A stretch of DNA of 64,000 bases from Minisyncoccota bacterium (GCA_041657445.1 JBBABV010000002.1:3364-67363), one strand, 5' to 3'; counted from the first letter of the stretch, positions 58,039 to 64,000 are shown. Program-made: numbers and translations. The notes: generated from the sequence alone by a model not told the origin.

Positions 58039-58460
58039 AACATTCAATTTATTAATACAAATTTTTAATAAACATGTATAATATATGAATTTTTATGAAA
58101 ATATCTTAAATGTGTTTTTTATACATTATAAGTTTTGTGAATTATTATGATTTCCAAATTTCTTAACAGGAATCGAACAATTAGTACTTCTCAGCTCTAC
58201 ACATTACTGTGCTTACACTTAAAGCCTATCAACCTGATCATCTCTCAGGGTTCTAAACGATTCCTCATCTTGAAGATGGCTTCCCTCTTAGATGCTTTCA
58301 GAGGTTATCCATTCCCGACATAGCTACCGAGCAGTCCACTTGGCAGTAGAGCTCGTACACCAGAGGTCAGTTCACTCCGGTCCTCTCGTACTAGGAGCAA
58401 ATCTTCTCAAGAATCAACGAGTGCAGTAGATAGGAGACCAACCTGTCTCACGCATGTTTT

Positions 58461-59694
58461 CACACATTACTGTATGCATTGGACTATACTTTCCCTATAA
58501 TACAGGGGTCGGTTTGTAGTCTCTACAAAGAACAAAAGTTCTTCTCGGTATTGTCCTCCACTTATAATGGATGGGATTTTACCGATAACCCCGACTTATT
58601 CTTTATTTTTAAATAAAGACCGCCGTGATTTGATTGGTTACTCTATCTTTTTAACAAACGAAAAAACTTCTTAATAACAGTATTTTATAATTTCTCTTAG
58701 GATTCAGATTGTGGAATAGTCGTTTATATTACTAAAAACAACTTCTCCACGGTCTGACATTTAATCCATTATTACTAATGGTACTGACTATACCTTTTCC
58801 AAAACTTTCCTGCCTTGGAACTGACGTGTTAGCAAGCATGTCGCTCGCTCTGTCTATTTACTAGACAAGTCGATACGGGGATTATCAATCTTATAAGTCA
58901 TTGATGGGGCGATAAATGGAGAAACTATTGAGAGAAAAAGATTGTAATATTCTTTTCCAATTGCAATTTTCCATTGATTTCTATCTTTTACTATTGTCGC
59001 AGATATATTATATTTCTTTTTTAGAAAATCAACAATTATTTCTTGATCTTCATAAGAAAACGAATGTGTACTTAAAGTCACATTACTGTGATTATTTGAA
59101 CCATCATCCATATACCATATCGCTAACATTCTATCAGAAAAAATAGGAAGTACTTCTTTTGGAAATATTTTCACATTATCTTTATAAAAGATTTTATGTA
59201 TAATTCCAAATCCTTCCAAACTTCTCGTATGAAAGTACCATGATATTTCTTTAAGATTTCTTTTTCTATTTGTCCATGAAATTTTTCTTGGACTAGAAGA
59301 AACAAAACTCTTTAATATTTCATACTTCCACCAGACATAATCTTTTTGTTTTTCGCCATGATGCACACGAAATCGAGCTGTTAAAACACCCCTAATTCCA
59401 TTTGACCTGCACTCAAGCCGTGCATCTCCTAACAACGACCCTATAATCACATCTAGCTGATGTGATGGAAATGTTGATTGTAATCTTCCCACGATATTAT
59501 CCATTATGTGTATTTTATCACACACAACCGGACTTCACCGTTATGAGTCAGTTTATTTTTTATCTCTTTTTTATTTTGACAAGCGAGGAGCGAGTGAAAA
59601 TAATAATTTTCACTTCGTCCGAGCGAAGTCAAACTATGGATTTTAATAAATCCATGTCCTCGTAGAAAGTCATTAGCTGGGCTCATGAATCCTT
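58461..59694 (-). mobile_element. Group I intron A in 23S, near the site equivalent to E. coli ~L2585-2593, carrying a LAGLIDADG gene
   Basis: 5' exon ends ...GAGCUGGGU. The 3' end has P-like, R GUAGAGACUACA, S AGUAUAGUCC, and a P9 CAUACA-GUAA-UGUGUG hairpin, then an omega G before AAAACAUGCGUGAGACAGG. Confidence 0.55.
58854..59525 (-). CDS. LAGLIDADG homing endonuclease, double-motif, intron-encoded
   Basis: Two motifs, VIIGSLLGDARLE and AIWYMDDGSNN. 223 aa. Confidence 0.8.
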   Translation of the reverse strand: MCDKIHIMDNIVGRLQSTFPSHQLDVIIGSLLGDARLECRSNGIRGVLTARFRVHHGEKQKDYVWWKYEILKSFVSSSPRKISWTNRKRNLKEISWYFHTRSLEGFGIIHKIFYKDNVKIFPKEVLPIFSDRMLAIWYMDDGSNNHSNVTLSTHSFSYEDQEIIVDFLKKKYNISATIVKDRNQWKIAIGKEYYNLFLSIVSPFIAPSMTYKIDNPRIDLSSK

Positions 59695-59774
59695 ACCCAG
59701 CTCGCGTACCTTTTTAATTGGCGAACAGCCAAACGCTTGGGAGCTTCTCCGCCCCCGCGCTAAGGTGAGCCGAC

Positions 59775-60301
59775 CACTTATTTACATGCAATGAAACCAT
59801 TGCAAAACCATTATTACTAATGGTGCAGACTATACCTTTATATTAGATTTGTTCTAAATATACCAGCGTCTTATAACAATGTTTATATTGTTATCTTCAT
59901 TTTATTCTGTAATTCTTACAGATACAAAAATCCAGTCGTTACGGGGTTATGAAAGTCCTATCTTATATCTCATAGATTTGATGATATAAGGACAAATTAG
60001 GTCAACAAGTTTTTGAGTCTCTTTTTTATTGCAATATATTCTATAACCTTTATCTCTATCTTTGTAAGACAACATAGATATGTTAAATTTATTCTTAACA
60101 ATAAAACAAAGTTTCTCAATCTCTTGTAGAGTAAAAGAATAAGCATTTTCTTATTCCAATATTTACTTTCTAAACTTCCCACGGTGTTGACCATATATAA
60201 CGCGAATTATATCATGGCTTTCTCCGTTATGAGCTGATTTAATACATAAATTTATGTATGAGAGAATTGTTCAGACTCTCTCTCCTCGACATTCGGTGTT
60301 T
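59775..60301 (-). mobile_element. Group I intron B in 23S at the L2500-equivalent site (between CUCGAU and GUCGGCUC), with a decayed ORF remnant at 59997-60194
   Basis: 5' exon ends GGCACCUCGAU. The intron ends ...S-like AAGGUAUAGUCUG plus a P9 CCAUUA-GUAA-UAAUGG, then G, then GUCGGCUC. Confidence 0.55.
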
Positions 60302-61228: not shown

Positions 61229-61971
61229 CATGTATTTACATTACTTAATCTCCAAAAATGGAGAGCAAAACCCACTATTACTAGTGGCACAGACTATATC
61301 TTCATCTCAATGCATTTTGAATATCTTTCTTTGAATACTTTCTTTTTCCACTTGGATTCATTTGAAAAACTAAATCTAAAATCTTTTTTAATCCGTTCTT
61401 ATTCTTGTGCATATTTTTTTGCATAAGAAAACAAACTTCTTTAAAACGATTAAAGTCATTCTGTTTCTCTGAAATCAAAGGGTGTTTTTCAAAATGAGGA
61501 ATTATTTTACTGATTAGGTTTTCCAAACTTCTCACTTCATATTTAAGTGTTTTGTCTGAATAATCTCTTCTGATAAAACCACATTGAAAAATGTTTTGCA
61601 TCAGGAAAAGAATTTGTGCTCTATCTTCATTTTGACTGACAGAAAAACTTGGTTTGGTTTCCCAGCCCAGAGTTAGTTTGTCTCGCTTTGAAAAAGAAAC
61701 ACTAAAGCATCCTTCTCCATCCACATATCCTGAAATATATTCTTGTATATTATGCTTTTTTATATTGAGAGCCGGCATGTTATAGATTATAACAATAATC
61801 TATCTAGGTCGCCACTATACAGAGGCGACCTAAGTCGTTACGGGGTCACTATAATTTGATTATAGGACTTCCCACGGTATTGTCCTTAATTACTTTCGCA
61901 CTTTCATTAAGGATTCCACCGTTATAAGCCGGATTTAATCCGAAAATCACTCTTCGGATGGGCAGTTCTCT
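61229..61971 (-). mobile_element. Group I intron C in 23S at the L1917-1931-equivalent region (GUCGGGU|AAGUUCCGAC), carrying a LAGLIDADG gene
   Basis: Exon junction reconstitutes GUCGGGUAAGUUCCGAC. P-like CAAUACCGUGGGAAGUC, Q-like CCCCGUAACGAC, S AAGAUAUAGUCUG plus a P9 CCACUA-GUAA-UAGUGG. Confidence 0.55.
61302..61778 (-). CDS. LAGLIDADG homing endonuclease, single-motif, intron-encoded
   Basis: Motif ISGYVDGEGCFSVSF. 158 aa. Confidence 0.8.
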   Translation of the reverse strand: MPALNIKKHNIQEYISGYVDGEGCFSVSFSKRDKLTLGWETKPSFSVSQNEDRAQILFLMQNIFQCGFIRRDYSDKTLKYEVRSLENLISKIIPHFEKHPLISEKQNDFNRFKEVCFLMQKNMHKNKNGLKKILDLVFQMNPSGKRKYSKKDIQNALR

Positions 61972-61991
61972 ACCCGACAAGGTATTTCGCT

Positions 61992-62205
61992 CTAGTCACC
62001 TGTAAAAACTAGGACTCTATCTTCATCCTCTTTCGTAAGAAAGTAGGATGCATGGCGTTGGTCTCTTGTTAACCATGATTGGATTCTCATACATTACTGC
62101 ATAAGTAGGTAGCGTTTTTGTGTAATTTTTCTGTTTACTTTTCCTACAACAGTCCCAATCCTTTTTGACTCATTATTACAACACATATTGTAAAATATGT
62201 CAAAA
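61992..62205 (-). mobile_element. Small (214-nt) group I intron E in 23S between GGUCCUAAGGU and AGCGAAAUACC (L1900-equivalent region)
   Basis: Splits the otherwise contiguous CUAAGGUAGCGAAAU. R-like CAAGAGACCAAC and S-like AAGAUAGAGUCCUAG. The intron ends in G. Confidence 0.5.
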
Positions 62206-64000
62206 ACCTTAGGACCGTTATAGTTACGGCCGACATTCACCAGGGCTTATATCAGTCTGCATATCACATTGCTGTAATACACCGCCGATATTTGACCTTC
62301 TGGCATTGGTCAGGTGTCACCCCCTATACATCCTCTTACCGAGTTCGCAGGGAGCTGTGTTTTTGGTAAACAGTTGCCAGAGATACTTTCGCTGCGGCCC
62401 TCTAAATAAATAGAGGGCAAGCCTTATCCCGAAGTTACGGCTGCTTTTTTGCCGAGTTCCTTGGGGACCACTCACTCGTTCGTCTTGGTCTACTCGACCT
62501 GATCACCTGTGTCGGTTTGCGGTACGGATTCTATATTCATAAGTTTAGAGATTTTTCTTGGAAGTGTGCTTTGCATTATCATCCTCAGCCGAAACTGAAA
62601 ACTTTTCATTTCTCTTGGAATTGCTATTTAAAGCAGTGTACGGATTTACCTATACAACATCCTTAAGAAACAAACTTCAAATCCAATAATGAGCAATGCA
62701 TACTACACTCCGTCATCCCATCACAAAATACAGAAGTCAGGGAATATTAACCCTGTGTCCATCGGGTACGGATTTCTCCATCCCCTTAGGCCCGACTAAC
62801 CCTTGGCTGATTGACATTACCAAGGAAACCTTGATCTTTCGACGGTGGGCGTTCTCAACCCACTTGCGGTTACTTGTGCCAACATTCTTACTTCCACACA
62901 CTCCAGAGGCCCTCACGGGTCCTCCTTCACTGCTTTGGATTGCTCTCACGAACAATCCGAGTGGAACACTCTCCTACCACTCGTGAACTTCATAGAGGAG
63001 CCAACAATAATTATATTGTTGGCAGAAAAATTAAATAATTTCGGTTGGGGTGAAACATTTTAAATGCTTGATTAATGTTCCACATCCTAAAGTGATCTCT
63101 CCAATACAAGAGAGCGAGCTCAAGAATTTGAGCACTTTAGAACTCAAAAATACAATAGAAAAAAATTAGCATTCTGTTTTGTATTTCTGACCCAAAACTT
63201 AATAAAGAACAAATAACTGAGGCTGACTGTAAATTTTACAGTTTTTCTCCTTTTCCCAATAGGAGAACTTCAATACAATATCAGCCAGCCTTCAGCAAAA
63301 ACATTTCCTCTATGAAATTCACGAATCCTCAAATTCGGTATCATACTTAGCCCCAATTATTTTCGACGCAAAATCTCTGGATGAGTGAGCTGTTACGCTA
63401 TCTTTAAAGGATGGCTGCTTCTAAGCCAACCTCCTCATTGTCAGAGAAATTTCACCTTCTTATTTTACACTTAGTATGAATTTAGGGACCTTATTTAGAG
63501 ATCTGGGCTGTTTCCCTTTTCACCTGTGGAGCTTAGCCCCCACGGTGTAACTGCCGTGCTTTAACTTCTGGTATTCGGAGTTTGATAGGTTTCGCGAGAT
63601 TGCTCCCTGTCGAAACCTTCCAGTGCTCTACCCCCAGAAAGAAACACACGACGCTAGCCCTAAAGCTATTTCGGAGAGAACCAGCTATTACCAGGTTCGA
63701 TTAGCTTTTCACTCCTTACCACAAGTCATCCCAACGCGTTGTACGACGAACGGGTTCGGACCTCCATTTCACTTTCGCAAAACTTCATCCTGCTCATGGC
63801 AAGCTCACCTGGCTTCGGGTCTTATGCATACTACTTAATCGCGCTATTAACACTCGGTTTCCCTGTGGCTTCATGGTTCTCCCATTTAACCTTGCAGTAT
63901 GAATAAACTCGTTGGCTCATTCTTCAATAGGCACGCCGTAGCAGAGTAAACTCTGCATCGACTCCTTGTAGACATATGGTTTCAGGTCTATTTCACCGCC

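Follow-up and report, generated by a model that had tools for sequence, protein, structure and literature searches.

The 64,000-nucleotide (nt) stretch of DNA analysed here (Minisyncoccota bacterium, GCA_041657445.1, JBBABV010000002.1:3364-67363; hereafter the window, with positions counted from its first letter) carries on its minus strand a 23S ribosomal RNA (rRNA) gene that is interrupted by six insertions, 3,090 nt in total, at E. coli positions 1931, 1951, 2262, 2504, 2584, and 2593, after which they are named here L1931 to L2593. A further insertion replaces helix 45 and brings the number to seven and their sum to about 3.4 kb (Table 1). The gene was recognized by the Rfam model LSU_rRNA_bacteria (minus-strand matches of 978 and 279 bits), and a blastn comparison of the reverse-complemented region with E. 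coli 23S gave six collinear exon blocks, to which a 20-nt and a 9-nt mini-exon were added by motif mapping. The end of the window at 64000 cuts the gene, which runs on past it, and the 3' end given for it (~58160) is approximate. An initial annotation made from the sequence had described collinear 23S exon blocks separated by at least five group I introns of about 3.1 kb, two of them with intact LAGLIDADG endonucleases; the gene, the kind and summed length of the introns, and both endonucleases are borne out, whereas the count was one too few, and the strand, the helix-45 insertion, and an endonuclease remnant in L2504 had been missed. We consider it highly likely that a 23S gene of a bacterium of the candidate phyla radiation (CPR) has here been colonized by six group I introns plus a helix-45 hairpin.

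All six sites are canonical large-subunit (LSU) group I intron positions, as had been claimed, and the junctions quoted by the initial annotation (CUCGAU to GUCGGCUC, GUCGGGU to AAGUUCCGAC, and, across a gap, GGGU to CGUGAGACAG) are all present, although the last of these gaps, correctly seen as intronic, holds two introns split by the 9-nt exon, which had been overlooked whereas the 20-nt exon had not. The last nucleotide of the 5' exon is U at each of the six junctions and the terminal intron nucleotide is G (omega-G) in every case. The internal guide sequence of each intron is complementary to the exons that flank it, pairing with the upstream exon as P1 and, in most, with the downstream exon as P10, the P10-pairing guide bases, where present, lying directly 5' of those that form P1. 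The pairings are AGGU/ACCU (P1) and AGCG/CGCU (P10) in L1931; CCCU/GGGG and CCU/AGG in L2262; AGCUGGGU/GCCCAGCU (8 base pairs, bp) and UCA/UGA in L2584; AGACCGU/GCGGUCU (7 bp, U-G) and CGUGA/UCACG in L2593; and, as P1 read directly from the sequence with no P10 listed, GGGU/GCCC in L1951 and CCUCGAU/GUCGAGG in L2504. The splice-site pair is U-G in five introns and U-A in L1931. A classical R/S core can be read directly in each intron, with R as GUAGAGACUACA or CCCGUAACGACU and S as AAGAUAUAGUC or variants of it (in L2262, R GUAGAGACUACA and S AUGUAUAGUCC), and P3 and P7 cross in all models, giving the P3-P8/P7 pseudoknot. The P4-P6 domain is present in L1951, L2262, L2504, L2584, and L2593 and absent from L1931 of the window. 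L1951, L2504, and L2584 have a common IA3-like core with P7.1/P7.2, and L2262 and L2593 share another core type.

Table 1. Features of the 23S locus in the window, in the order of transcription (Ec, E. coli 23S position; ORF, open reading frame; aa, amino acids)
Feature	Position	Strand	Basis
23S rRNA gene, 3' five-sixths (E. coli 498 to end)	58160..64000	-	Rfam LSU_rRNA_bacteria, blastn
Exon block Ec498-1162	63996-63327	-	blastn vs E. coli 23S
348-nt insert replacing helix 45, long hairpin, not an intron	63326-62979	-	gap Ec1162 to Ec1208
Exon block Ec1208-1931	62930-62206	-	blastn vs E. coli 23S
L1931 intron, 214 nt, no ORF, reduced group I form without P4-P6	62205-61992	-	motif mapping, guide pairing
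20-nt mini-exon AGCGAAATACCTTGTCGGGT, Ec1932-1951	61991-61972	-	motif mapping
L1951 intron, 743 nt, IA3-like (P7.1/P7.2), endonuclease ORF in P8	61971-61229	-	
Intact single-domain LAGLIDADG_1 endonuclease, 158 aa, in L1951	61302..61778	-	Pfam PF00961, E 7.6e-26
Exon block Ec1952-2263	61228-60917	-	blastn vs E. coli 23S
L2262 intron, 373 nt, no ORF	60917-60545	-	
Exon block Ec2263-2504	60544-60302	-	blastn vs E. coli 23S
L2504 intron, 527 nt, IA3-like, degenerate endonuclease gene	60301-59775	-	
LAGLIDADG_2 C-terminal remnant, 62 codons, in L2504	59947..60135	-	C-terminal piece only
Exon block Ec2505-2584	59774-59695	-	blastn vs E. coli 23S
L2584 intron, 937 nt, IA3-like, ORF in P6	59694-58758	-	
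Intact two-motif LAGLIDADG_2 endonuclease, 223 aa, I-SceI-like, in L2584	58854..59525	-	Pfam PF03161, E 1.8e-42
9-nt mini-exon TCAGACCGT, Ec2585-2593	58757-58749	-	motif mapping
L2593 intron, 296 nt, no ORF	58748-58453	-	
Exon block Ec2594-2884	58452-58180	-	blastn vs E. coli 23S
5S rRNA, downstream of 23S	57927..58034	-	Rfam RF00001, 70.4 bits

Compensatory changes back the helices of L1951 (47 homologues), L2593 (18), and the short form of L1931 (35); across these alignments P3 covaries, and P7 shows either no change or compensated changes. For example, several standard pair types occur in P2, P3, P4, P5, P6, P7.1, and P9 of L1951, as counted in separate 5' and 3' alignments, with P3 pairs seen as CG/TA/TG, and the start codon of the endonuclease overlaps the 3' strand of P3, which covaries with it. 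L2593, the P1 loop of which carries a ~115-nt expansion, keeps P3, P8, and P9 nearly fully paired over three to six pair types, P4 covaries, and one P7 pair switches between A-U and G-C. For the other introns we found few homologues, and their pairings were read by eye: in L2584, the site of which is also occupied in two relatives (loci L035 and L040), P3 (CUGAC/GUCAG), P7.1, P7.2, P8, and P9 could be read directly; the family of L2262 recurs in locus L018; and L2504 is ~80% identical to both ends of a 961-nt intron at the same position in locus L008.

The initial annotation had also named, as the alternative to splicing, intervening sequences (IVSs) that RNase III removes, leaving a fragmented rRNA; IVSs of this type, the flanking pieces of which stay unligated, are known from Salmonella, Campylobacter, and Coxiella. 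This alternative plausibly describes the helix-45 insert, which sits at the classical IVS site, is closed by a stem of ~21 bp (GAUUCGUGAAUUUCAUAGAGGA/UCCUCUAUGAAGUUCACGAGU), and has a predicted fold of -146.8 kcal/mol (z = -8.6), an anatomy that makes it probably an RNase III-type IVS. The Coxiella IVS encodes a small protein, and the ORF list for the helix-45 insert contains no ORF above 38 aa. Helix-45-type IVSs occur in CPR, and insertions at this site have been assigned to the IVS type by Tsurumaki et al. (PMC11270868). The hairpin might remain in the rRNA as an expansion segment, or RNase III might remove it and leave the ends unjoined. The other six insertions, on the other hand, lack long closing stems and have guides, R/S cores, the P3/P7 pseudoknot, and a terminal G, and if the rRNA were fragmented there, the peptidyl-transferase and H69-H71 regions would contain loose RNA pieces of only 9 and 20 nt; RNase III processing therefore fits the helix-45 element only, and as an account of the insertions at large we hold it to be very unlikely. 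Under the group I reading, each intron would fold in the precursor, its guide pairing with the last nucleotides of the 5' exon and the first of the 3' exon, and guanosine-initiated transesterification would excise the intron and ligate the exons. Six such events, joining the 20-nt and 9-nt mini-exons, would rebuild the H69-H71 and peptidyl-transferase/A-loop regions.

The endonuclease genes are in different states: two are intact (L1951 and L2584), one is a remnant (L2504), and the remaining three introns are without ORF. The L1951 protein covers the full PF00961 profile (motif YVDGEG), matches I-SmaMI/I-OnuI-type halves in the PDB (E 1e-36 to 1e-25), and has full-length relatives at 74-78% identity in Nomurabacteria/Paceibacterota metagenome-assembled genomes (MAGs); presumably, it would act as a homodimer. 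The L2584 protein spans profile positions 2-167 of the 168 in PF03161 (motifs LLGDA and MDDGS), matches I-SceI in the PDB (E 4e-17), and would be an I-SceI-like monomer. In both proteins the motifs end in the acidic residue required for catalysis. The activity of both enzymes is predicted from their sequences, and a CPR relative, I-ShaI, has been shown to be active (PMC11270868). Both ORFs extend into elements of the ribozyme core, that of L1951 ending with its stop codon in the S element and that of L2584 reading through P4', P6, and the R element. The L2504 gene retains the first 18 (about 60141-60194, minus strand) and the last 61 codons of a LAGLIDADG_2 gene; the C-terminal remnant is 85% identical to residues 164-224 of the ORF in L008, a Nomurabacteria relative, and shares 32% identity (E 2e-8) with the endonuclease of L2584 in the window itself. 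Because the L008 ORF is intact (225 aa), ~425 nt have been deleted internally from the gene in the window. Intact, decaying, and lost endonuclease genes are thus displayed together, as the homing cycle predicts, and every stage of that cycle (intact, internally deleted, and ORF-less) is captured within one gene. The introns would have spread through homing, driven by LAGLIDADG endonucleases, into 23S alleles that lacked them.

Comparison with relatives had been proposed as a check by the initial annotation. A search with the L1951 endonuclease gave 56 related genome loci, mostly from CPR MAGs and in a few cases from Anaerolineae, Thermoflexus, and other groups. Among them, sites 1917, 1923, 1931, 1951, 2262, 2449, 2500, 2504, 2584, 2593, and 2657 are occupied in some loci and uninterrupted elsewhere, and such intron-less alleles fix the junctions to the nucleotide and establish a presence/absence polymorphism; sites 2584 and 2593 were compared with long flanks, since 9-mer flanks were too noisy. 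The 20-nt exon between the L1931 and L1951 introns is common among relatives, and L035 and L040 likewise have the 9-nt exon that separates L2584 from L2593. Intron sets differ among the three closest relatives, which points to recent gain and loss. The L1951 intron and its endonuclease have further homologues in the 23S genes of MAGs labelled Anaerolineae, Thermoflexus, Deltaproteobacteria, Omnitrophota, Acidimicrobiia, and Proteobacteria (the loci with labels outside CPR are L033, L042, L044, L045, L047, L048, L050, L052, L054, and L057); either this intron spreads well beyond CPR or some of these short contigs are mis-binned.

The 23S exons share 85-95% identity with those of Ca. Nomurabacteria and Ca. 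Paceibacterota MAGs, in which the nearest relatives of the L1951 endonuclease are also found, and the genes next to the locus have bacterial housekeeping functions; by sequence affinity, the host is a Nomurabacteria/Paceibacterota-like CPR (Patescibacteria) bacterium. An origin from an organelle was ruled out by the 4 transfer RNA (tRNA) genes in 64 kb (ARAGORN) and by bacterial PyrG, GatA, SecD, RodA, and histidine kinases. The assembly is metagenomic, and rRNA genes and repeated intron cores misassemble easily, so that an assembly chimera, or else a decaying rRNA pseudogene that collects mobile elements, has to be weighed. We regard either as extremely improbable: the same structure is found in an ENA assembly made independently and in a contig from Logan, the exons are collinear throughout and their functional motifs fully conserved, the same sites and mini-exons recur in relatives, and a terminator-like hairpin and the 5S gene follow in their normal place downstream. 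The ENA contig (L061), retrieved by endonuclease look-up, covers the gene in full, with 10 mismatches to the window over 9 kb, and its 5' part contains no further large insert, Ec12-890 being one continuous blastn block. Three of the ten differences lie at 58276-58277 (23S 3' exon) and 61242 (3' end of the L1951 intron) and the rest in downstream genes, which suggests that the source population varies at the strain level. The 23S and 5S genes form a pair without linkage to 16S; directly upstream of 23S in this near-identical contig (6868-7234) there is no 16S, and the genes there are L10, L12, purH, and others. CPR genomes usually have a single 23S copy.

Several points weigh against a gene from which all six introns are spliced. 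With the Rfam group I model (Intron_gpI, RF00028), a tRNA intron elsewhere in the window is detected (45252-45468), but not one of the six 23S introns, even when the threshold is relaxed to E <= 10. A scan with Rfam LSU and group I models had been suggested by the initial annotation, and only its LSU half came out as expected; the model being blind to all six introns, the case is built on anatomy and covariation, with structures derived by hand. The folds of L2262, L2504, and L2584 are less secure, resting on pairings read by eye. L1931 combines the loss of P4-P6 and a U-A splice pair with a P7 of only 3-4 bp, features that make its autonomy as a ribozyme doubtful, and the L1931 intron of Simkania is unspliced (Everett 1999, as cited in PMC1995217). 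Finally, it is from DNA that we infer the splicing of the six introns.

The reduced L1931 intron is not peculiar to the window, in which the 5' strand of P3 joins J6/7-P7 after ~7 nt with no P4-P6 between. A metagenome scan with the 5' domain of the family gave 120 loci (L063 to L182), 99 of them with complete L1931 introns, and 34 of these, or roughly one in three, lack P4-P6 (the short forms, 187-240 nt); short forms also occur at L008, L024, L028, L029, and L041. The base opposite the splice-site U is A in 32 of the 34 short forms, as against 43 G, 7 A, 2 C, and 1 unclear in the forms with P4-P6. An alignment of 35 distinct short copies (mean column identity 51%), all of which have the U-A splice pair, supports a model with a 5' hairpin, a GGAYU/RRUCC helix enclosing the guide, a GNRA hairpin, P3, P7, P8, P9, P1, and P10. 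This structure is 84.7% paired, compared with ~39% in slid controls, and its covariation score of 0.40, against at most 0.125, is reached by none of 500 shuffles. The guide (GCUACYU), a G-C pair of P7, and the terminal G are invariant or nearly so, and P3, P8, and P9 stay paired through compensatory changes, a pattern that argues for selection on a splicing-type fold and not for a neutral passenger. One or more introns could instead stay in the mature 23S as an expansion, most plausibly the reduced L1931 at the junction of GGUCCUAAGGU and AGCGAAAU, given its missing P4-P6, U-A pair, and weak P7, and given the retained intron that is tolerated at this site in Simkania negevensis; the constraint on guide, P7, terminal G, and compensated helices across the short forms runs counter to this, and we consider retention unlikely. 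In the window, the helix enclosing the guide is GGAUU...AAUCC, at 62140-62150 and 62070-62080 (minus strand); it covaries (GGACU/GGUCC, UGACU/AGUCA) and, since it encloses the guide, forms a pseudoknot with P1 and P10. The adjoining UUGGGAC could instead pair with exon GUCCUAA, as it does in the minimum-free-energy fold.

How a group I intron might manage without P4-P6 was considered in two ways. Borrowing of the P4-P6 domain of the adjacent L1951 intron was ruled out, 26 of the 34 short forms having no L1951 intron, and a role of the 5' domain as substitute is unsupported, the forms with P4-P6 carrying the same 5' domain. The receptor for the U-G wobble is J4/5, in P4-P6, and loss of P4-P6 and loss of the U-G pair may then be connected in mechanism. 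In group I ribozymes, catalysis is centred on the P3-P7 domain and P4-P6 serves as a scaffold (PMC6257700), and a "minimal catalytic domain" without P4-P6 has been made in the laboratory (Ikawa, Shiraishi & Inoue 2000, as cited in PMC6257700). Like these engineered deletion ribozymes, the short form keeps P3, P7, P8, and P9 without P4-P6, whereas it is natural, bacterial, widespread, and structurally selected and has an extra 5' domain and a U-A pair. The small degenerate nuclear group I introns of fungi (PMC3160393) may be grouped with it as comparable, and in the literature searched we found no description of natural group I introns lacking P4-P6. That the 214-nt L1931 intron stands for a natural, widespread group I class that lacks the whole of P4-P6 and is yet kept as a functional rRNA splicing element is a proposal we make tentatively, with the balance slightly against it. 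Should the short form prove able to self-splice, the laboratory domain would have its first counterpart in nature, and the mutual dependence between the U-G wobble and P4-P6 a natural test. This reduced class is the one part of the locus that is worth experiment.

Genes of this kind have counterparts both in organelles and in bacteria. Green-algal chloroplast and other organellar LSU genes carry many group I introns, with I-CreI at 2593 and the I-SceI omega intron at 2449. The window gene shares with them insertion sites, endonuclease families, and very short inter-intron exons, but in the 64 kb of the window there are no more than 4-5 tRNA genes, alongside bacterial housekeeping and two-component genes. 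In CPR, insertions have been reported in 82% of 23S genes, with maxima of 16 per gene and 5,750 bp, the group I introns being concentrated in the 3' part of 23S and LAGLIDADG_1 and LAGLIDADG_2 ORFs, degenerate versions, and ORF-less versions occurring at the same sites (Tsurumaki 2024, PMC11270868); CPR insertions are reported to be removed from transcripts, for which Brown et al. 2015 is cited there. The window gene agrees with these in host group, in 3' clustering around the peptidyl-transferase centre, in ORF types, and in its probable helix-45 IVS; it is no different in kind, its seven insertions lie within the published range, and it represents one more, dissected example of the intron-laden 23S already well documented in CPR. 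That survey, however, scored insertions of at least 100 bp relative to E. coli and left junctions, guides, mini-exons, and intron structures aside, which are resolved here. The value of the locus lies in a fully resolved splice map of six junctions with their guides and the 9- and 20-nt mini-exons, and in the picture of the whole homing-endonuclease cycle that one gene gives. In the same survey the Rfam group I model matched only 45% of the CPR 23S insertions (PMC11270868); as it sees none of the six introns here, Rfam-based intron calls break on such genes, which also upset rRNA annotation and primer-based surveys. Among other bacteria, Coxiella burnetii combines a helix-45 IVS with group I introns in its 23S gene, as the window gene probably does, and its L1951 intron of 720 nt with a 157-aa LAGLIDADG ORF (PMC1995217) closely resembles that of the window (743 nt, 158 aa), whereas it has two introns (Cbu.L1917 and Cbu.L1951) instead of six and L1917 where the window has L1931. 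Synechococcus C9/C1 and Thermotoga have LSU introns at L1917, L1931, and L2593, three of them in Synechococcus (PMC1995217). Those at L1931 and L2593 encode endonucleases with ORFs that run into the core, as do the core-entering ORFs here; on the other hand, these genes have at most three introns, all with intact single-motif endonucleases, while L1931 and L2593 of the window are without ORF and L1931 is reduced.

Elsewhere in the window, a tRNA(CAU) gene on the plus strand (45231-45530; exons 45231-45261 and 45493-45530) is split between U33 and C34 by a 231-nt group I intron (45262-45492), the only one in the window recognized by Rfam (63.4 bits). The split gene was missed by ARAGORN, and its spliced sequence folds as tRNA-Met(cat); an uninterrupted second tRNA-Met adjoins it on the opposite strand. 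At 13768-16656 (plus strand), an ORF resembling the large subunit of phage-type terminases, though scoring under the curated cut-off, lies directly upstream of an ORF that resembles large serine recombinases, a pair that may be the remnant of a prophage or an integrative element. CPR bacteria generally have reduced amino-acid biosynthesis, and histidine biosynthesis genes would be unexpected in them; at 6301-7788 (plus strand), a 495-aa ORF matches HisA over residues 1-236 and HisF over residues 242-494 and is thus a HisA-HisF fusion.

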